64,000 bases of DNA from Gemmatimonadota bacterium (lineage in GTDB: Bacteria > Gemmatimonadota > Gemmatimonadetes > Palauibacterales > Palauibacteraceae), in NCBI GenBank assembly GCA_046758745.1, contig JBHIAV010000007.1, forward strand, positions 1 to 64,000. The letters are read 5' to 3'. The translations under genes and the position numbers were made by a program. The notes beneath the pieces were generated by a model. It was not told the DNA's origin. It ran no database searches and saw only the letters and a program-made list of their open reading frames with translations. Shown one piece after another: positions 10,392 through 32,005 of the stretch. How positions within the stretch are numbered: position 1 is the stretch's first letter; every line of letters starts with the position of its first letter.

Positions 10392-11114
10392 ATGACCGAT
10401 CCACTGGAGACCGCGAAGAAGTTCGCCGACGAGCTGGCGGTCGCTTTCGGTGATGAGCTCCGGAGCGTCCTCCTCTACGGCTCGGTCCCACGGGGTGAGG
10501 CGGTGCCGGGTGTGAGCGACATCAATGTCCTCGTTCTGGTCGAGCGGATCCGGCTCGCCGGTCTCGGGAACGTCTCGTCGCTGGCGCGCCGGTGGATCGA
10601 GGGTGGGAACACGGCGCCGCTCCTCCTCTCGTGGCACGACTGGGCGCACAGCGCGGATGCCTTCGCGGTCGAGATCGCGGACATGAAGCAGCACCACAAG
10701 GTCCTGCGCGGCGATGACCCCCTGGCCGAGCTCCAGGTCGTCCTGAGCACGTTGCGTCATCAGACGGAACACGAGCTGCGCGGCAAGATGGTGCAACTGC
10801 ACGAGGGTTTGATGCTCGCCGCCCCGAAGCCGGAGGAGCTGGGGCGCCTCCTCCTGACCGCGCTCCCCTCGTTCACCACCTACCTTCGCACGACGCTTCG
10901 CCTCGGAGGGCGCGCGGTACCCGACCGGACGGAGGAGATGATCCCGGCCGCCGCGTCGGTGGTGGGCGGCGAGCCGGACGCGTTCCTCCGCGCGTGGCGA
11001 GCGCGGATCACCGGAAAGGCGCCGGCCGTTCGTCTCGACGATCCGTTCGTGGCCGGCTACTACGGGCTGGTGGAGCGGACGGTCGAGTGGGTGGATGGTC
11101 TGATGGACCGATGA
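10392..11114 (+). CDS. Nucleotidyltransferase-domain protein (TPM/LemA-associated)
   Basis: AAGGAGGT SD; LYGS-x-x-RGE...SDIN Pol-beta-like motif. Confidence 0.85.
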   Translation: MTDPLETAKKFADELAVAFGDELRSVLLYGSVPRGEAVPGVSDINVLVLVERIRLAGLGNVSSLARRWIEGGNTAPLLLSWHDWAHSADAFAVEIADMKQHHKVLRGDDPLAELQVVLSTLRHQTEHELRGKMVQLHEGLMLAAPKPEELGRLLLTALPSFTTYLRTTLRLGGRAVPDRTEEMIPAAASVVGGEPDAFLRAWRARITGKAPAVRLDDPFVAGYYGLVERTVEWVDGLMDR

Positions 11115-21500: not shown

Positions 21501-22147
21501 ATCCCGAGGCGGAGCGCACGCTCTCGGGGACGGTGCGAGGCGCGCTCATTCACGGCGTGCTTGAGCGGATCCAGGAGGCGGAAGAGCTCGCCCGCGTGCT
21601 GAACGAGACGATCGCCGGGATCGGGGCGCCAGACCTCGAGGAGCTCCTGGCGCCGGGCACGGAGTACCGGCGGGCGCTCGAGCGGGAGATCGAGCGGGTC
21701 GTGCAGAGCGAGACATGGGAGTGGTACGTGGAGGGGGAGCACTACCGTGAGCTCGCCTTTCTGCGCCTCCTGGGACCGCGGGAGTGGCGCCACGGGCGCT
21801 TCGACCTCTATCGCCCGTCCGGCGCCCGCTCGACGGGCCGGGAGATCGGCGTGGCGAGGGATGGTTCGGCGGCCGACGGAGAGGACTCCTGGATCATCGA
21901 CTTCAAGACGCACCAGATCGGGGAGGGGGAGGTGTGGTCGACCGCGAAGGAATACGAGGTCCAGGTGGCGGTGTACCGGGAGGCGGCGGAGGCGCTGACC
22001 GGCTCGGTGGCTCTCGCCGGTGTGGAAGCGGCCGGCGGAGCGGGAACAGCTTCGGGCGAACTCGGGGGGACGGCGTCCGATGTGTCCGGCCGAGTACGGG
22101 TCGTCCTCCACTTCACGCACCCGAACGTGGTCGTGGAACCGGGCTGA
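18599..22147 (+). CDS. addA: AddA-like UvrD/SF1 helicase with C-terminal RecB-type nuclease
   Basis: Q-motif, ASAGTGKT, ITFTEKAA, TIHGFC, IDEFQD, VGDPKQSIY.FRGAD, NFRS, TIHTAKGLEW, LYVA.TRAR, G.FDL...IIDFKT..Q..VY. Confidence 0.92.
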   Translation: MREMRWTDEQVEAITARGDVLLAASAGTGKTTTVVGKVLWLLGLDVGVQAGTGEPLPPCPDPCAVEEIAAITFTEKAAYDLKRKLRAEIGLSERAEELRWQIDRASVGTIHGFCGELLRDHALRLGIDPTFRILDERETTLRQDEIIRDVVFKALEDREPGALDLVKRFTLPGRRQRAGTIGHVRSVLHDIRWRHKRYEGWTADRAGGDERPRELAEERLRAIAERAGVWDELLANAELDERAVRDAAALYRLAFESLRRWLAWLEEENVRDFDSLILDARRLLTREATRPALESIRRWYRILIIDEFQDTDGAQRDIAFAIAGIAVRGGTGEPGPRRRAGGAPQLFLVGDPKQSIYRFRGADISVWNAVRRALCGDGEPLQLTHNFRSEPQVVDFVNRVCSRAMSERAAAIAPEMPESRVDYRTLVPARRPSRAAGLEWLAVDGGSNQADRREIEGKLVASRILQLVGRAAVVDPETRRPRPCRLRDIAILGRTRDALAAVERGLRRYGIRTYNTATSGLADRQEILDLVTALRLIDKPHDDLRAFAYLRSPFVGLRDEILSRIRLDRATGGGSFLRQAERFVEATAASEIEWPAAPESPHVAQVELEALEAGLRAILDAHTLVDRADTAELLEEVLQRTGYRLHLLLRDGAAEATANIERFLALLEEYRHLSLGSFLVLWDRWGERDLGIPQAPLFSHDDDVVTLSTIHTAKGLEWPVVFLIDAGDGPDMGSRLTDTYWSDPKLGPVFMPKKAERGAWCAKLFERALLEEHAEEARLLYVATTRARDRFVVSAPTERLKGYAAWLGLGLEDAVEVAEAGWLADAVGPEEPTGEVPGSAGSQFELFPGGVEGPAATGETPAAPDGVSATAEEKAGVVAGHIERAVRPMVVHREPIAIQTLLRPSPVSLAWLEGVEPAEWPELVRPVPTPRLRFMTSATELMMRERDPESWKLRYLHGVEPWWRFAPDPEAERTLSGTVRGALIHGVLERIQEAEELARVLNETIAGIGAPDLEELLAPGTEYRRALEREIERVVQSETWEWYVEGEHYRELAFLRLLGPREWRHGRFDLYRPSGARSTGREIGVARDGSAADGEDSWIIDFKTHQIGEGEVWSTAKEYEVQVAVYREAAEALTGSVALAGVEAAGGAGTASGELGGTASDVSGRVRVVLHFTHPNVVVEPG

Positions 22148-22306
22148 GCGGCGCGAGGCCGACCGCTCGTTCGGCGCTCGGGCCCGTGGCACGTACCCTG
22201 CGCAGAATGGGAAGGGGGCGGTGAGCATACGAAGGGGGCGGTAACTGGCCCTTCAGGCTTTACCGGTCGACGCCGGAGGGCTCGGCTCGAGCGGAAGCAG
22301 AGTGTG

Positions 22307-22336
22307 TTGACAAGCCCCGAGGTGGAGGGGTACAGA
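22307..22336 (+). promoter_or_regulatory. Sigma70-type promoter TTGACA-N18-TACAGA
   Basis: Perfect -35 box; no plausible CDS downstream on +, so it probably drives the structured RNA. Confidence 0.55.
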
Positions 22337-22341
22337 TAGCA

Positions 22342-22572
22342 CCGCGGGGATGTCTCCACGGAACGACAGGGCCGCACCGGGAATGACCTCCCGGCGATCG
22401 GGCAGTGGGTTCATGAGCGCCTTCCGAGCCCCGACCGTGGGCGGTGTGTCCCGACTTTCGTAGAGGATCAGACAGCGGGCGGGGCTAAGGCCCACGGGAC
22501 TCCGAAAGGACCCTGCAACCTTCATGTCCGGTTGCCTCGTGCCTAAGGCCCCGCTCGCCCCTTACGCTTTTC
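22342..22572 (+). ncRNA. Candidate ~220-nt two-domain structured RNA (unassigned)
   Basis: Domain 1 (22342-22478) is a long irregular hairpin. Domain 2 (22475-22558) is a branched fold with a TCC-GAAA-GGA tetraloop and a GCAACC/GGTTGC hairpin. Several G-U pairs work only on +. Pyrimidine tail follows. Confidence 0.65.
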
Positions 22573-22728
22573 TCCTCGCGCTCCTCCCGTGATCGGCCAC
22601 ACCTCTCGCGCTCGCCGGGCCACTGCCCCCGGGCGGCGCCACGGCACACGGGCGCACGGGCCGCATGAGGGGTGCTCGAAGCCTACGGCGGTCTCGGCCA
22701 GGGCGACGATACTCAAGGGATAAGAAGC

Positions 22729-22801
22729 GGGCGGACCAGCGGTTTCGTGTGGGGGCGCTTACGCACATCTCGGCCGGTCCGCCCTGATCCGCTTCGGGAT
22801 C
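22729..22801 (-). promoter_or_regulatory. Conserved structured 3' UTR, copy 1 (small GATCC hairpin plus 12-bp GC stem, terminator-like)
   Basis: GGGCGGACC 22729-37 pairs with GGTCCGCCC 22776-84 and extends via a G-U on the minus strand; near-identical to 23257-23329. Confidence 0.7.
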
Positions 22802-22816
22802 TCTATGTGTAATGGG

Positions 22817-23095
22817 CTAGAAGTCTACCCATATGTCGTTGTCAGCCGCGATGGTACGCAGCTTGGTGATAGGGGCGGCCGGGTCGTTCGACAGCTTCGC
22901 CACCCGCACCTCGCCACTGGCGGTGACCGAAATCAGCGGCGAATGGCCCACCGCGAGCGCATCCGGCGGCACCCTGAACAGGGTGCCTGTTTCGAGGGTC
23001 ACGTAGGAGCCTGGGCTTTCGATCTCGTTGAAGACCATCTCCGGTAGACGATTGGTGAGATGGTCGCGTGCGACCTTCCGGGCTTGAGTAACCAC
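22817..23095 (-). CDS. 92-aa protein of unknown function, paralog 1
   Basis: AAGGAG SD plus GTG; about 69/92 aa identical to 23344-23622 with mostly conservative changes. Confidence 0.9.
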   Translation of the reverse strand: MVTQARKVARDHLTNRLPEMVFNEIESPGSYVTLETGTLFRVPPDALAVGHSPLISVTASGEVRVAKLSNDPAAPITKLRTIAADNDIWVDF

Positions 23096-23099
23096 GACT

Positions 23100-23123
23100 T
23101 CAGCTCCTTGAACGACGGTTCAT
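23100..23123 (-). CDS. Leader micro-ORF MNRRSRS (copy 1)
   Basis: GAGGAAAAGGAC before ATG; contains the SD of the main gene; TGA 4 nt before GTG; same layout in copy 2. Confidence 0.55.
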   Translation of the reverse strand: MNRRSRS

Positions 23124-23171
23124 GTCCTTTTCCTCTCGAGATGTGCGGTTGCAGTCTCCCCACAACAACAC

Positions 23172-23197
23172 AACAACCGACCCTCCGGGCGGTTCCC
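23172..23197 (-). promoter_or_regulatory. ECF-type promoter GGAAC-N17-GTT (copy 1)
   Basis: GGGAACC and CGGTTGTT boxes are kept in both copies while the spacer has diverged. Confidence 0.6.
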
Positions 23198-23256
23198 GGT
23201 AGCTAACCGGCCGGTTTCTGCGAGGAGTGGGGACTACGCGTTTCTCGGGAAGAGGT

Positions 23257-23329
23257 GGGCGGACCGGCCGCAGGCTGGAGGGGCGCATGTGCACATCTCG
23301 GCCGGTCCGCCCTTGATCCGCTTCGGATC
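23257..23329 (-). promoter_or_regulatory. Conserved structured 3' UTR, copy 2
   Basis: Perfect 14-bp stem GGGCGGACCGGCCG 23257-70 / CGGCCGGTCCGCCC 23299-312; GATCCG/CGGATC hairpin 23315-29. Confidence 0.7.
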
Positions 23330-23343
23330 TCTATGGTGGTAGG

Positions 23344-23622
23344 CTAGAAGTCAACCAGGATGTCGTTGTCAGCCGCGATGGTGCGCAGCTTGGAGATCGG
23401 AGTGGCTGGACTGTCCGACAGCTTCGCTACCCGAACCTCCCCACTGGAGGTGATCGAGATCAACGGCGAGTGACCCGCTGCGAGCCCTTCCGGTGGAACC
23501 CTGAACAGGGTGCCTGATCCGAGGGCCACGTAGGATCCAGGGCTTTCAATCTCGTTGAAGACCATCTCCGGGAGACGATTCGACCGTCTTTGACCTGAGG
23601 CGGCGGGCGCTTGGGTAGCCAC
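23344..23622 (-). CDS. 92-aa protein of unknown function, paralog 2
   Basis: AAGGAG SD plus GTG; paralog of 22817-23095. Confidence 0.9.
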   Translation of the reverse strand: MATQAPAASGQRRSNRLPEMVFNEIESPGSYVALGSGTLFRVPPEGLAAGHSPLISITSSGEVRVAKLSDSPATPISKLRTIAADNDILVDF

Positions 23623-23626
23623 GATG

Positions 23627-23650
23627 TCAGCTCCTTGTGTGACGGTTCAT
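23627..23650 (-). CDS. Leader micro-ORF MNRHTRS (copy 2)
   Basis: Same SD, length and 4-nt spacing to GTG as copy 1. Confidence 0.55.
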   Translation of the reverse strand: MNRHTRS

Positions 23651-23699
23651 GTCCTTTTCCTCTCGTCGATGTGCACATGCAGCTTGCAGTTGCCGAAAG

Positions 23700-23726
23700 A
23701 ACAACCGCCACTTCCACCGGGTTCCC
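23700..23726 (-). promoter_or_regulatory. ECF-type promoter GGAAC-N18-GTT (copy 2)
   Basis: GGGAACC...CGGTTGTT at the equivalent position to copy 1. Confidence 0.6.
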
Positions 23727-24014
23727 AGCAGGCCTCTGGTGGCTTTCCTCAGTGGGAGCCGAACTCCTCGGCGTGGTCATCGATCGACGCGTCGACGGCC
23801 TGAAGGGCGTAATCTCGACATACGCGTGCACGAGCCGGGTCGGTCCGGCCCGACCTCGAGCCCGTGTCACGGCGCGGCCTCCAGCGATAGAAGGGCGGCG
23901 GAAAGGTCATGCCGAGAACCGCCGCAGGCTATCCTCGGGCAGGCGGTGAGGGAAGACGTTCGGTCGTGGCGGAGCGCACCCGACCGGTTGGCCGCTGCCG
24001 AGGTCTGGAGCCGC

Positions 24015-24476
24015 TTACGGCGTCATGCTGCTGTTCCAGATGTCCCGGTGGAGCTTCCAGCTCCCATCCACCTTCTTCCACACCACGATGTACTTGCCGT
24101 GATCGAGATGGGCGCCATCCGCCCCTGTGACCACATACGAGCCCCTCACCTCGATCGCCGTTTCGCCGAAGTCCTCCACCTCGCCCATCTTCAGCTCGGC
24201 CTGTGACCCTGACTCCACGGCACTCTGCCAGAACGCTTGGATCGCCTCACGGCCCTCGATGGGCTCGCTTCCCGGCGGCAGCAGCATCGCGTCGTCCGTG
24301 TACAGCGCCGCGATGCCGGCCCCGTCGCCCGCGTTCCACGCCGCTTCCCACGCCTCGGTCGCCTCCGCGATCGCCGCCCGCGTGTCGCTGGAGGCCTGGC
24401 CGAGGCTGACGGAAGGAAGCGCCAACAGGGACGCACACAGCATTGGTACCACGTTACGCATGGTTCTCAGCTCCAT
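24015..24476 (-). CDS. Secreted NTF2-like / DUF4440 protein
   Basis: Signal peptide; WN.GD...IAALYT.DA.LLPPG...I.GR.AI..FW; GKY.VVWKK..G.WK..RDIWNS. Confidence 0.88.
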   Translation of the reverse strand: MELRTMRNVVPMLCASLLALPSVSLGQASSDTRAAIAEATEAWEAAWNAGDGAGIAALYTDDAMLLPPGSEPIEGREAIQAFWQSAVESGSQAELKMGEVEDFGETAIEVRGSYVVTGADGAHLDHGKYIVVWKKVDGSWKLHRDIWNSSMTP

Positions 24477-27629: not shown

Positions 27630-29027
27630 CTACTGCCGAGCGTTGGTCTCGTCCACCGGGATCGGGAACTCCGAATGAATCGTGTGATTCGGCTGATCGA
27701 GCGGCAGCTGGTTGAGTCGCCCGTGCCGCCGCATGTCGATCCACCGGTGTCCGCCCTCGAAGAGCAGCGAGTACCGCTTGTTGTACAGGAGCTCGTCGAG
27801 GATGTTGGAGGCGTCGAGGTCGTTCCGCTCCGGCAGGCCGCCGGACGTGGTCCGGATGAAGTTGATGTCGTCGGCCGCATCGGAGATGTTGCCGAGTCCG
27901 ATGTTCGCCTCGGCCCGGAGCAGGATCAGCTCCTCGTTCCGGATGATCGGCACGGGCGACGTCGGTGACGGATACAGCGGATCGAAGCGGAGATCCGAGA
28001 AGACTCCCAGCAGCGTCCGCGGATCCGGCGCCGGTCCCACCTTTCGAAGGAAGCGCGCATCGGGATCGACGCCGTTCTCCTGGAGCTGCGCGTCGGCCCG
28101 GATCGAAATGTGGGCGAAGAGGTCCGGATCCACGAGCTGGCTGAGCGCGTCCCCGGAGCCCGTTCCGAAGACGTGGTACACGCCGAGATCGAGTGACGCT
28201 CCCTCATCCAGGAACGACTCGCCGAGCGCATCGAGCGCCCGGCTCGCCGCCGCCGCGTCGAACTCCATCCGGTAGACCTCCACCCTCCCGAGCAGCGCGC
28301 GGTTGAACAGGAGGAAGGTCGCCGGGGTGTCGAAGCCCGCGAAGCCGGAGCTGAGCGGGAACGGGAACACAGAGCCACCGGCCGCCAGGTTCCCTTTCGC
28401 CTCCTCGAGAAGCTCCACGATCCGCGCGAACACCTCCTGCTTGGTGACGAACGGGGCCGGGGGATCGCTCAGCGGACGATCCACGTCGATCGGGGCGCCG
28501 TTGTCGTTCCGCGCGTTGATGATGAGGAGAAAGTCGAGGGCCTGCATCGTCTTGGCGAACCCTCGCGTCGCTTCCTTCTCCTCGGGGGTCATCCCGTCCG
28601 GAGGCGCGTCCGGCAGGGCGTCCAGGGCGGCCAGCAGGATGTTGGCGTTGCGGATGTTCTGATACCGCTCTCGCCACAGGTTCCCGCCGAGGGCGCGGGC
28701 GCCGGGGTCGAGCTGCAGTCCATCCACGCCGAGCATCTGCGTGATGAAGCGCGTGTCGGCGCCGTCCAGGTTGTAGGACTCCCGGCCCAGGATTCCGAGC
28801 AGGGAGACGTACCCGTTGAACCTGGCGATGTTTTCCCGCGCCCCGATCAGAAGGCCTGTCGCCCCGGCGACGGCGCCGGAGCGCGTCGGCGACTCCTCCA
28901 GCTCCTCGGCGCTCGGGTTGTTGAAGTCGGGCGCCTCCAGAGCCTCGCACGCGTTCAGCCCGCCGATCGCCAGGACGGCGAAGAGGGCGGGGATCGATCG
29001 CCTGATGGCCATGTTTCGCATCCTCAT
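27630..29027 (-). CDS. RagB/SusD family outer-membrane lipoprotein
   Basis: Lipobox LNAC; PIIR.EELIL.RAEA; IN.IR; EGGHRW.D.RR.G; PIP..E. Confidence 0.93.
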   Translation of the reverse strand: MRMRNMAIRRSIPALFAVLAIGGLNACEALEAPDFNNPSAEELEESPTRSGAVAGATGLLIGARENIARFNGYVSLLGILGRESYNLDGADTRFITQMLGVDGLQLDPGARALGGNLWRERYQNIRNANILLAALDALPDAPPDGMTPEEKEATRGFAKTMQALDFLLIINARNDNGAPIDVDRPLSDPPAPFVTKQEVFARIVELLEEAKGNLAAGGSVFPFPLSSGFAGFDTPATFLLFNRALLGRVEVYRMEFDAAAASRALDALGESFLDEGASLDLGVYHVFGTGSGDALSQLVDPDLFAHISIRADAQLQENGVDPDARFLRKVGPAPDPRTLLGVFSDLRFDPLYPSPTSPVPIIRNEELILLRAEANIGLGNISDAADDINFIRTTSGGLPERNDLDASNILDELLYNKRYSLLFEGGHRWIDMRRHGRLNQLPLDQPNHTIHSEFPIPVDETNARQ

Positions 29028-29044
29028 CGCTCTCGTCCTCGCGG

Positions 29045-32005
29045 CTAGAATCCAAGATCGATCGAGAACCAGAAGCTCCGGCTCGGCGGGTACGGCGAGG
29101 TGTCGATGTTCCGTCCGATGGACTGGTTCCCGAAGTTGCTCACCTCCGGATCGAGGCCCGAGTAGCCGGTGAACACGAACAGATCTCGCGCGCTCAGGCT
29201 CAGGCGGACCCGCCGGAAGGACGACCACAGCTTCTTGACGACATCCGTGGGAAGCTCGTAGGCCAGGGTGGCCTCGCGCAGCTTGACGAACGTGCCCGAT
29301 TCGAGGAACGCCCTGGCGTCCGTACCGAACGCACCCAAACGCGCCGCTCCGTTTTCCAAAAAGTCTTCGGTGGTCTGGGCGAGATCCGAGATCAGCGTAT
29401 TCAGGTTGATGATATCGCCGCCCCGCCGCCAGTCGAAGAGCGTGTACAGGCTGAGTCCCTTGTAAGAAAATTCGTTCACGAAGGACATTTTGAAGTCCGG
29501 GTTCGTATCACCGATCTTCACGATGTCGCCGGACGGGATAATGCCTACGATCTGGGTGGCCGAGGCCCCCTCCTCGACCCGGAACTCTCCGAGCGAGGGG
29601 CCGAAGCCGCTGTTCGGATCCCCCGGCGCCGGGGAGAACTGCCTGACACCGATCGCCTCCTCTAGCTCGAGCACCTTGCTCCGGTCGAGGGAGAAGAGGG
29701 TCCTGGACACCCACTGGAAGTCCGAGGTCCGGAACGGGGTGAGCCCCAGCGCCAGCTCGACCCCTCGCACGCGCAGCTCACCGCCGTTGACGAATCGGGA
29801 CTCGAAGCCCGATGAGGGGGCCACCGTCTGCTGGAGGAGGAGGTCGGTGATGTTCTGCTGGTAGAAGGTGAACTCGAGGCTCGCGTTGCCGCCGACCAGC
29901 GTCGCGTCAAAGCCGGCTTCGATCTCGCGCGTCCGCTCCGGCTCGATGTTGGGATCGCCTACCCGCGGGTTCACCACAATGCCTGCTTCGCCCTCGATGT
30001 TCTGGGTGGCGTTCAGGCTGATGAACTTCTGTCCGAACAGAGGCTGGTTGCCCGACTCGCCGTACGCCACACGGAGCTTCAGGTCCTCGATGGCCCCCGA
30101 CAGCCCTGTGAAGCTGTAGGCGGCCGACCCCTTCGGGTACCAGAAGACCTCCTCGTCGTCCCCGTTCGCGCTGGACTGCTCCCCCCGAACCGCGCCGGTG
30201 AGGGTGAGCCGCTCGTCCAGGAGCTGCAGCTCCTCCTGAATGTAGAAGCCGAAGTCCTCCACCCGCTCCTTCCGCTGGCTCACCTCGATCTGGGTTCCCG
30301 ACGCGAGGTTCTCCTGACCCGCGGTGAGGTCGCGGCTCACGATCCGAGCGATGTTGAGCTCCCGCTCCTCGAACTGAACCCCCGCCGAGGTGGTGGCCCG
30401 GAAGGAGCCCGAGGAGGGGGTGTAGGAGTAGACCGCGTCTCCGCTCAGGTTCTGGTTGCGGTTGTCGCTGTCCGAGAGAAGTGATGTCCCCGGCAGCCCG
30501 TCATCCGGCTCGAAGAAGAGCTCGGGCGGGAAGAAGAGGTCGTTCTCCTGCCGGAACCAGTCTATCCCTCCCCGCGCGATCAGCCTCAGGCTGCTGTTCT
30601 CGGTCCTGACGGCCTCCCAGGAGAGGTCGGCCGAGCCGATGAAGCGCCACACCTCCTCCTCGTTCTTCATCAGCTCGAACGTCTGGAGGGGGTTGCTGCC
30701 GCCCGTGAACGGGTTGTCGGGAAACGTTCCGTCCGGCCTCTGCCTGAGGTCGAAGAAGCGCGGGATGAACGGCAGCGCGAAGAACGGCGTGATGAGGAAG
30801 TTGTCGTTGTTGAAGAGGCCACGCCGAGCCAGGGTGTGAACGATGTTGGAGCTCACGCCCAGCCGCCACCGCTCGCCGAGCTGCTGGTCGATATTGAGCC
30901 GGAGCGACTGCTTCTGGTACCCGGTGTTGTTGACGATGCCCTCGTCGTCCTTTACGAGAGCGGAGACGAAATAGCTCGTGTTCTCGCTACCGCCGCTCAC
31001 GCTGGCGATCGTCTCGAAGGAGAGCTTGTTGCGGTCGGAGAGCTCCTGCTCGTGGTCGAAAAACCGCCCCTGCCGGAACGGCTCGCGTGCCGCCTCTCCG
31101 AACACCGAAACCACCTCGTCCTCCGTGGCGCCCCGGAAGGTGCGATAGTTGAACTTCTCGCTCAGTTCGAAGAAACCGAAGCGCTGCGTGAGGTCGACCC
31201 GGGGCGGGCCGGGGCGCCCGCGCTTCGTGGTGATGATGACCACGCCGTTGCTCGCCTTCGATCCGTAGATCGCCGAGGCCGAGGCGCCCTTCAGGATCTC
31301 GATGCTCTCGATGTCGTTCGGATTGAGATCGGCGATACGGTTGACCTGGTCCTGCTGAAGGGGCGAAGGGTTCGACCCGCCGCTGGACTGGGTCACCACG
31401 TCCTGGTTGTTCACGATCGCCACGTTGCTGACGATCGTGCCATCCACCACGTAGAGCGGCTCGCTGGCGGCGTTGATCGAGGAGATGCCGCGCAAGTTCA
31501 CCTGGATGCCGCCGCCGGGGGCGCCGGAGTTTTTCTGGATGTCGGCGCCCGCGATCTTCCCCTGTACGGCCTGCTCGACCGAGGACGCGGGCACCCGCTC
31601 GAGCTCCGCGGCGCTCACCGTGGAGATCGCGTTGGCGACGCTGCGCCGCTCCAGCGCCGTGGCGCGCCCCGTCACCACCAGCTGCTCGAGCTGAAGGAGG
31701 TCGGTGCGGAGCTCCACCGTGACGCTGCTCTGGTCCGCCGCCACCGTCACTTCTCCCGCCCGGTATCCGATGCGCACCACGCGCAGCGTCACGCTACCGG
31801 CGGGTGCCCCCCTAAGCACGAAGGTGCCGTCCTCCGCCCCAAAGGCGCCGAGCTGGGTCCCGACGACGCTGACGCTCGCGTTCGCCACGGGCGCCTGCGT
31901 GTCCATGTCGATCACCCGTCCCGAGATCGTCCGCTGCTGCGCGATCCCGAGGCTCGCGGTGAGGAGAAGGAGTACGGTGGAGAGTAGGCCGGCTCTGGCA
32001 GTCAT
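29045..32005 (-). CDS. SusC/RagA family TonB-dependent outer-membrane transporter
   Basis: CarboxypepD-like N-domain, VVTG, plug PLYVVDG...DLNPNDIESIEILKGASASAIYGS.ASNGVVIITTK.G, C-terminal F. Confidence 0.96.
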   Translation of the reverse strand: MTARAGLLSTVLLLLTASLGIAQQRTISGRVIDMDTQAPVANASVSVVGTQLGAFGAEDGTFVLRGAPAGSVTLRVVRIGYRAGEVTVAADQSSVTVELRTDLLQLEQLVVTGRATALERRSVANAISTVSAAELERVPASSVEQAVQGKIAGADIQKNSGAPGGGIQVNLRGISSINAASEPLYVVDGTIVSNVAIVNNQDVVTQSSGGSNPSPLQQDQVNRIADLNPNDIESIEILKGASASAIYGSKASNGVVIITTKRGRPGPPRVDLTQRFGFFELSEKFNYRTFRGATEDEVVSVFGEAAREPFRQGRFFDHEQELSDRNKLSFETIASVSGGSENTSYFVSALVKDDEGIVNNTGYQKQSLRLNIDQQLGERWRLGVSSNIVHTLARRGLFNNDNFLITPFFALPFIPRFFDLRQRPDGTFPDNPFTGGSNPLQTFELMKNEEEVWRFIGSADLSWEAVRTENSSLRLIARGGIDWFRQENDLFFPPELFFEPDDGLPGTSLLSDSDNRNQNLSGDAVYSYTPSSGSFRATTSAGVQFEERELNIARIVSRDLTAGQENLASGTQIEVSQRKERVEDFGFYIQEELQLLDERLTLTGAVRGEQSSANGDDEEVFWYPKGSAAYSFTGLSGAIEDLKLRVAYGESGNQPLFGQKFISLNATQNIEGEAGIVVNPRVGDPNIEPERTREIEAGFDATLVGGNASLEFTFYQQNITDLLLQQTVAPSSGFESRFVNGGELRVRGVELALGLTPFRTSDFQWVSRTLFSLDRSKVLELEEAIGVRQFSPAPGDPNSGFGPSLGEFRVEEGASATQIVGIIPSGDIVKIGDTNPDFKMSFVNEFSYKGLSLYTLFDWRRGGDIINLNTLISDLAQTTEDFLENGAARLGAFGTDARAFLESGTFVKLREATLAYELPTDVVKKLWSSFRRVRLSLSARDLFVFTGYSGLDPEVSNFGNQSIGRNIDTSPYPPSRSFWFSIDLGF

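Follow-up and report, generated by a model that had tools for sequence, protein, structure and literature searches.

Can a nine-nucleotide hairpin loop in a geneless spacer control two neighbouring genes by pairing with the start of their leader open reading frames, or is the match between loop and leaders fortuitous? The question arises from a 64,000-nt stretch of contig JBHIAV010000007.1 (assembly GCA_046758745.1, a Gemmatimonadota bacterium), referred to here as the window. Two tandem units on its minus strand, termed cassettes, recur with a period of 527 nt. Each consists of a 92-aa ORF, a terminator-like hairpin and a leader that contains a short upstream ORF (uORF). The following elements belong to the cassettes.

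22817..23095, minus strand: gene of cassette 1, starting with GTG and encoding a 92-aa protein of an uncharacterised family of small proteins (ORF list, profile search)
23344..23622, minus strand: gene of cassette 2, encoding a 92-aa protein with 75% identity to that of cassette 1 (ORF list, comparison)
23114..23138, minus strand: cassette 1 leader block CGAGAGGAAAAGGACATGAACCGTC, 25 nt (cassette alignment)
23641..23665, minus strand: cassette 2 leader block, same sequence as in cassette 1 (cassette alignment)
23100..23123, minus strand: uORF 1, MNRRSRS, stop TGA (sequence, ORF list)
23627..23650, minus strand: uORF 2, MNRHTRS, stop TGA (sequence, ORF list)
22729..22784, minus strand: cassette 1 terminator-like hairpin GGGCGGACC ... 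GGTCCGCCC with a pyrimidine-rich minus-strand tail (conserved between cassettes)
23257..23312, minus strand: cassette 2 terminator-like hairpin (sequence, cassette alignment)
23172..23196, minus strand: GGAAC-N17-GTT upstream of cassette 1 (word search)
23700..23725, minus strand: GGAAC-N18-GTT upstream of cassette 2 (word search; position aligned with that of cassette 1)

The 25-nt leader block holds the Shine-Dalgarno sequence of the uORF, GAGAGGA, together with the uORF ATG. Both seven-codon uORFs cross the main Shine-Dalgarno sequence, AAGGAG, and their stop stands 4 nt before the main GTG. The leaders have diverged outside three parts: the 25-nt block, the main Shine-Dalgarno region CAAGGAGCTGA and the start TCGTGG. 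This geometry, taken alone, makes it probable that ribosomes finishing the uORF go on to translate the main gene (termination-reinitiation coupling). A homologue from another source (P0004, 63% identical) carries an N-terminal extension ...VHIRSEEKDMNPEQGADNVATQ, which corresponds to REEKDMN when our leaders are read in that frame. Another organism thus seems to have retained GCACATC, GAGGAAAAGGACATGAAC and CAAGGAGC, though with a fused frame and without keeping the peptide after MN. In run X4, a contig of a related cassette retains positions 23644-23663, with flanks that differ. We take the leader word to be a functional, conserved translation-start element, and one that is probably older than the duplication.

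The GGAAC-N17/18-GTT words upstream of the cassettes resemble promoters of ECF sigma factors and may be promoters of that type; the stricter word GGGAAC-N17/18-GTT has 41 copies in the genome, counting both strands. Contig 37 carries a third paralogue, more distant than these two (L003 1501-1776, minus strand). Its leader word, GAGAAGGACGTAGC, is without the ATG, and a TATATT-type -10 word takes the place of the GGAAC-type word upstream. In G043 a distant homologue stands as a single gene; its Shine-Dalgarno sequence is ordinary, a canonical terminator follows it, and the uORF word is missing.

The encoded proteins offer few clues to function. Neither has a match in Pfam or NCBIfam, and a profile search places them in a family of 332 proteins at E <=0.001, with 82 at <=1e-10 and 4 at <=1e-30. 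The predicted fold is a small mixed beta/alpha globule (pLDDT 78.6). Structure searches gave no Foldseek match at E <=0.001, a best VIA Z of 2.7 and Atlas values all under 0.9. The two proteins have GRAVY values of -0.02 and -0.03 and maximum 19-residue Kyte-Doolittle means of 0.89 and 0.72. The family was found in none of 40 relatives and in one of 400 other genomes of the phylum. G+C content is 0.61 in the cassettes and 0.69 in the window, with a low-G+C stretch at 22700-23800. The absence from relatives and the low G+C make the cassettes look imported and suggest horizontal acquisition followed by tandem duplication. Searches elsewhere returned no family member from genome_contigs with near-relative patterns, none from viral_contigs, plasmids or phages, and from metagenome_contigs one partial locus that holds the 3' end of the gene alone, with no usable leader DNA. 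Elsewhere in the window, a 532-aa ORF (27630-29228, minus strand) has, by eye, the look of a SusD/RagB-type outer-membrane protein.

The hairpin lies beyond cassette 1, in a spacer whose elements are listed below. Its upstream neighbour is a UvrD/AddA-like helicase-nuclease gene, convergent with cassette 1.

22148..22700, no strand assigned: orphan spacer, 553 nt, from the stop of the helicase-nuclease gene to the cassette 1 terminator-like hairpin
22475..22558, plus strand: 84-nt three-way structure (fold prediction), with hairpin 22515-22535 as one arm
22515..22535, plus strand: hairpin GCAACC/TTCATGTCC/GGTTGC, read from the sequence and folding in structure predictions
22408..22415, plus strand: GGTTCATG site, duplex -13.6 kcal/mol for a 12-nt window, opening 3.4-4.7 kcal/mol
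22440..22451, plus strand: GGCGGTGTGTCC site, pairing with GGACAT..ACCGTC of both leaders (12 bp including 2 G.U, 2-nt bulge)

The spacer is host-like in composition (G+C 0.694), and several candidates for its content were rejected. The reading frame favoured by codon-position G+C is without a start codon. A 90-aa ORF at 22253-22525, which starts at the loop ATG, has poor codon-position G+C and finds only itself in the protein collection. A search by blastn and tblastx for a decayed third cassette turned up nothing beyond a 12-nt stretch at E 4.3 and the terminator that spacer and cassettes share. No tRNA or tmRNA was found in the spacer. The DNA 3' of the helicase gene carries other genes in 11 related genomes. 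In two related genera (G002 and G013, loci L067 and L070), ORF translations, by reading, show a putative ECF sigma factor and an anti-sigma gene 3' of the helicase-nuclease gene, in the place occupied here by the spacer and the cassettes.

The stem of the hairpin, GCAACC (22515-22520) with GGTTGC (22530-22535), has six base pairs, all Watson-Crick, and encloses the 9-nt loop TTCATGTCC (22521-22529). A stem of this palindromic type allows a hairpin on either strand; on the minus strand the loop is GGACATGAA. The predicted 84-nt structure around it is built on a 12-bp G+C-rich basal stem and has two short stems and two hairpins, 22515-22535 itself and a sister capped by a GAAA tetraloop. On the plus strand it folds at -46.8 kcal/mol (z -3.29), and one of 200 shuffles does as well; on the minus strand z is -1.39, and 16 of 200 shuffles are equally good. 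The asymmetry arises because of three G.U pairs on the plus strand and the GAAA tetraloop of the sister hairpin. The larger region of 271 nt around the hairpin folds no better than shuffles on either strand. The loop needs 0.0 kcal/mol to open and is more accessible than any other 9-mer of the region, where only 3% of 9-nt windows need <=0.5 kcal/mol. Rfam gives no match at the gathering threshold across the whole window. Below that threshold, the best matches in 22100-24000 have E 0.7 or worse and fall on the cassette 2 terminator hairpin, which is chance level. A consensus scan of 22100-24100 called no promoters and no terminators; it is weakly informative, since the cassettes' own were likewise uncalled, the cassette 1 terminator-like hairpin among them.

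The complementarity described in the earlier note is confirmed. Read directly, the whole loop is the reverse complement of GGACATGAA in both leaders. On the plus strand the loop word itself recurs at 23119-23127 and 23646-23654, which puts GGACATGAA into the minus-strand mRNAs. The fit is exact, as stated there: complementarity is bounded by the ends of the loop and flanked by C.C and G.A mismatches. In both cassettes GGACATGAA includes the ATG of the seven-codon uORF, within the conserved 25-nt block. The second match, the 8-mer GGTTCATG at 22408-22415, also holds, and its complement, CATGAACC, overlaps the same ATG in both leaders. The hairpin stands 598 and 1125 nt from its two targets. As a regulator it would thus be neither opposite its target nor complementary to it over tens of nucleotides.

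The predicted pairing energy is modest to weak. Against the -12.0 kcal/mol of the 9-bp duplex stand +3.2 kcal/mol (cassette 1) or +3.7 (cassette 2) for the target and nothing for the loop as costs of opening, which leaves a net value of about -8.5. A 9-nt loop on a 6-bp stem would be strained if it were fully paired. The strongest predicted duplex of the spacer belongs not to the loop but to the GGCGGTGTGTCC site, which addresses the same target at -15.4 to -18.1 kcal/mol; it is buried in the predicted structure and costs 7.1-9.4 kcal/mol to open. Against the 14-nt target, three sites reach <=-12 kcal/mol on the plus strand (22408, 22440 and 22519) and none does so on the minus strand.

How often such a match arises by chance depends on the comparison made. 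The earlier note put the chance at a few percent, and dinucleotide shuffles of the 553-nt spacer bear this out: in 99 of 5000 an antisense 9-mer to a word common to both leaders appears. When a match to either leader suffices, 1265 of 5000 shuffles yield one. Within the window GGACATGAA has four copies (10679 on the plus strand; 22521, 23119 and 23646 on the minus strand) where 0.25 are expected, and none of 100 shuffles reaches four; the 3.08-Mb genome holds 15. The two cassette copies count as one event because the cassettes are duplicates. The copy at 10679-10687 (+) lies within a long open frame, not at a gene start. By duplex energy the spacer is ordinary, with 46 of 150 shuffles matching its best duplex on both leaders. 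Among random segments of the genome, two of 300 carry three or more sites at <=-12 kcal/mol; once a first site is granted by the selection, 24 of 300 have two others.

The genome as a whole provides a base rate. Among 1911 hairpins with a 6-bp stem and a 9-nt loop, the loop word recurs within 1.5 kb in 190. Counted strand by strand, 14 of 3822 such hairpins have a whole loop complementary to a gene-start zone, or about 0.3 per 64 kb. For loops of 10, 8 and 7 nt the same count gives 5 of 3760, 59 of 3722 and 190 of 3682, respectively. The gene-start zone is defined here as -40 to +10, at most 1.5 kb from the hairpin, around 5122 crude starts (ORFs of at least 80 codons with G+C3 of at least 0.78). 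This crude gene caller missed both cassettes, so the loop of 22515-22535 is not among the 14 hits. Most of those chance hits have GC-rich loops. TTCATGTCC is AT-richer and the rarer word, and the chance of a gene-start match for the loop at 22521-22529 is perhaps roughly ten times below the average. This rarity keeps the case open, and the match is still not significant for a scan of many windows.

In 40 relatives the hairpin has no homologue. A blastn search of the spacer against 40 relatives gave three short hits, all outside the hairpin. A covariance model of the 84-nt structure found only itself in 41 genomes. The leader 18-mer occurs at 53 loci in genome_contigs, none of which encodes a family member. 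In run X4 a variant contig of 88 nt (80 aligned, six differences, one gap, depth 3.3) carries T22521C and an extra A after 22520. Pairing would thereby drop to 8 bp, while the related cassette contig keeps the target word; the depth is low, and a common origin of the two contigs in one organism is uncertain. In G043, the terminator loop after the distant homologue (L010 1762-1795) has the 9-mer CCTTCATGT in common with hairpin 22515-22535. This sharing is probably a coincidence; the loop is on the gene's own strand and has no match to its start region.

Control of a gene through its leader ORF has well-studied precedents. On plasmid R1 the antisense RNA CopA contacts the mRNA leader through a hairpin loop and blocks the leader peptide tap, to which repA translation is coupled (PMC12361487). 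The present arrangement is similar in that a short leader ORF ends beside the main start codon, and its ATG lies in the sequence that the loop would cover. CopA differs in lying opposite its own target with full complementarity, whereas the hairpin here is ~600 and ~1100 nt off with 9 nt in common. The genes here are chromosomal and encode uncharacterised small proteins rather than a replication initiator. In the second system Sok blocks a leader ORF, mok, and hok depends on mok being translated at least as far as the hok Shine-Dalgarno sequence (PMC9841398). There, mok overlaps hok and Sok overlaps its target gene, whereas the uORF here ends short of the main start codon. Hok, a hydrophobic membrane toxin, has 52 aa; the proteins here have 92 aa and a GRAVY of about 0, and they lack the character of a type I toxin, that is, of a small hydrophobic membrane-active protein. 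Type I systems commonly occur in tandem copies and have long, structured leaders. The locus is a member of neither the CopA/tap nor the Sok/mok family. Another comparison is with the staphylococcal RNAIII and Rsa RNAs, whose exposed C-rich loops pair with ribosome-binding sites, sometimes through several redundant loops per RNA. The present case resembles them in its short, seed-like contact from an exposed loop to a translation start region. Such RNAs are transcribed and conserved across species; here only one of three or four complementary segments of the candidate RNA is exposed.

If the match had a function of this kind, it would be exercised by a small RNA of ~230 nt from the plus strand (roughly 22340-22580), with the 84-nt structure as its 3' domain and a loop that pairs with GGACAUGAA on both cassette mRNAs. 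Covering the uORF start would block uORF translation and, via coupling, that of the 92-aa proteins, and the 22408 and 22440 sites may extend or back up the contact. We consider such an RNA rather doubtful. The complementarity is exact, of loop size and directed at the conserved start region of both mRNAs; the loop opens at no cost and the target is mostly unpaired. The 84-nt structure and its GAAA tetraloop favour the plus strand, as do the three sites at <=-12 kcal/mol, a number rarely reached by random segments. Antisense 9-mers to words shared by the leaders are rare in shuffles, the spacer is without coding signal, and CopA-tap (PMC12361487) and Sok-mok (PMC9841398) supply precedents. Weighing against it, the contact amounts to 9 bp and about -8.5 kcal/mol net, and general RNA geometry makes full pairing of the loop strained. 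Consensus promoters and terminators are missing in the scanned region, where a TTGACA at 22307 is followed by a weak -10, and no Rfam family matches. About 14 such matches are expected per genome. The spacer has host-like composition next to imported-looking cassettes, the X4 variant alters the loop while the related contig keeps the target (at low depth, a single organism being uncertain), and the 22408 and 22440 sites are buried, at 3.4 to 9.4 kcal/mol to open. The known analogues are long, overlapping antisense RNAs rather than 9-nt trans contacts. A lineage-specific small RNA evolved by the host, a loop-only, trans-acting version of CopA/tap or Sok/mok that tames imported duplicated genes through one exposed loop with two or three weaker sites behind it, is in our judgement an equally tentative proposal.

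Two further readings, both of which we hold to be improbable, dispense with pairing between RNAs. The relation may be one of the same strand: the minus strand of the spacer bears partial copies of the leader word (GGACATGAA at 22529-22521, CATGAACC at 22415-22408 and GGACAC..ACCGCC at 22451-22440), which would be remnants of earlier leader copies left by the tandem duplication or sites for a leader-binding factor acting on DNA or on read-through RNA. All copies lie on the cassette strand, downstream along the array, the third GGACATGAA standing 598 nt past the second where the period is 527 nt. The 11-mer GGACATGAACC, allowing <=2 mismatches, occurs twice on the spacer minus strand against ~0.06 expected (in the window, 18 copies against 12.96 by shuffles), and GCAACCG of the 5' hairpin arm also occurs in the cassette 1 leader. 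Yet similarity between spacer and cassettes by blastn and tblastx is limited to the 12-nt stretch and the shared terminator, the ORF from the loop ATG has poor codon-position G+C and no relatives, the structure is weaker on the minus strand and the spacer G+C is unlike that of the cassettes. CsrA-type control, through GGA motifs in leader and hairpin loops, would require a CsrA-family protein; PF02599 was not found in this 87.4%-complete genome, and control genomes responded. Alternatively, the 84-nt structure may halt transcription from both sides, or act as an insulator, where the helicase gene and the cassette array converge; the loop sequence would then be irrelevant. Its position between convergent transcription units, its strong G+C-rich 12-bp basal stem, and CCCTTACGCTTTTCTCC after the structure on the plus strand with TGTCTGATCC on the minus strand all fit this role. 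Like intrinsic terminators, it is a stable G+C-rich stem-loop in a convergent spacer; unlike them, it is branched and has no T-run directly after the stem, the T-rich run beginning 9 nt beyond the basal stem. Consensus scanning finds no terminator, the structure lies 330 nt beyond the helicase stop, and at 22729-22784 cassette 1 is already equipped with a terminator-like hairpin.

The explanation that we favour, with about even confidence, is that the locus holds two separate real things, the conserved leader and the 84-nt structure, and that the link between them is most likely fortuitous. GAGAGGA would drive translation of the seven-codon uORF across the main AAGGAG, and ribosomes finishing the uORF would translate the 92-aa gene. 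The 84-nt structure, specific to this genome, is probably a 3'-end or stabilising element of a plus-strand transcript, be it the 3' UTR of the helicase mRNA or an orphan small RNA, or else is functionless. The complementarity of loop and ATG would then be a chance match of a kind that arises about a dozen times in the genome. The host-like G+C of the spacer beside imported-looking cassettes suggests that the cassettes were set beside older DNA and that the two parts are independent, as does the third paralogue without the ATG, and the X4 variant contig suggests that the loop is not protected. Several observations run against coincidence: the loop word is rare, and its match spans precisely the loop, which no other 9-mer of the region exceeds in accessibility; the plus strand, from which an antisense RNA would have to come, folds better; three sites lie on the plus strand and none on the minus strand; and 553 nt is an unusual length for a spacer without a gene, and suggestive of an RNA gene. 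The coupling that this explanation places in the leader is, moreover, inferred from the arrangement of its signals. The regulatory interpretation of the loop match is neither supported nor excluded.

About 14 whole-loop matches to gene starts per 3-Mb high-G+C genome are a warning against reading such matches as regulation. The conserved uORF and overlapping Shine-Dalgarno leader before a family of 92-aa genes form a second useful result, which can be tested independently. If the antisense interpretation were true, it would extend leader-ORF-mediated antisense control beyond plasmids and toxin-antitoxin loci, through a minimal 9-nt loop contact. Its setting would be a little-studied, uncultured hydrothermal-vent lineage and a widespread small-protein family without a Pfam or NCBIfam model or a detectable structural relative.
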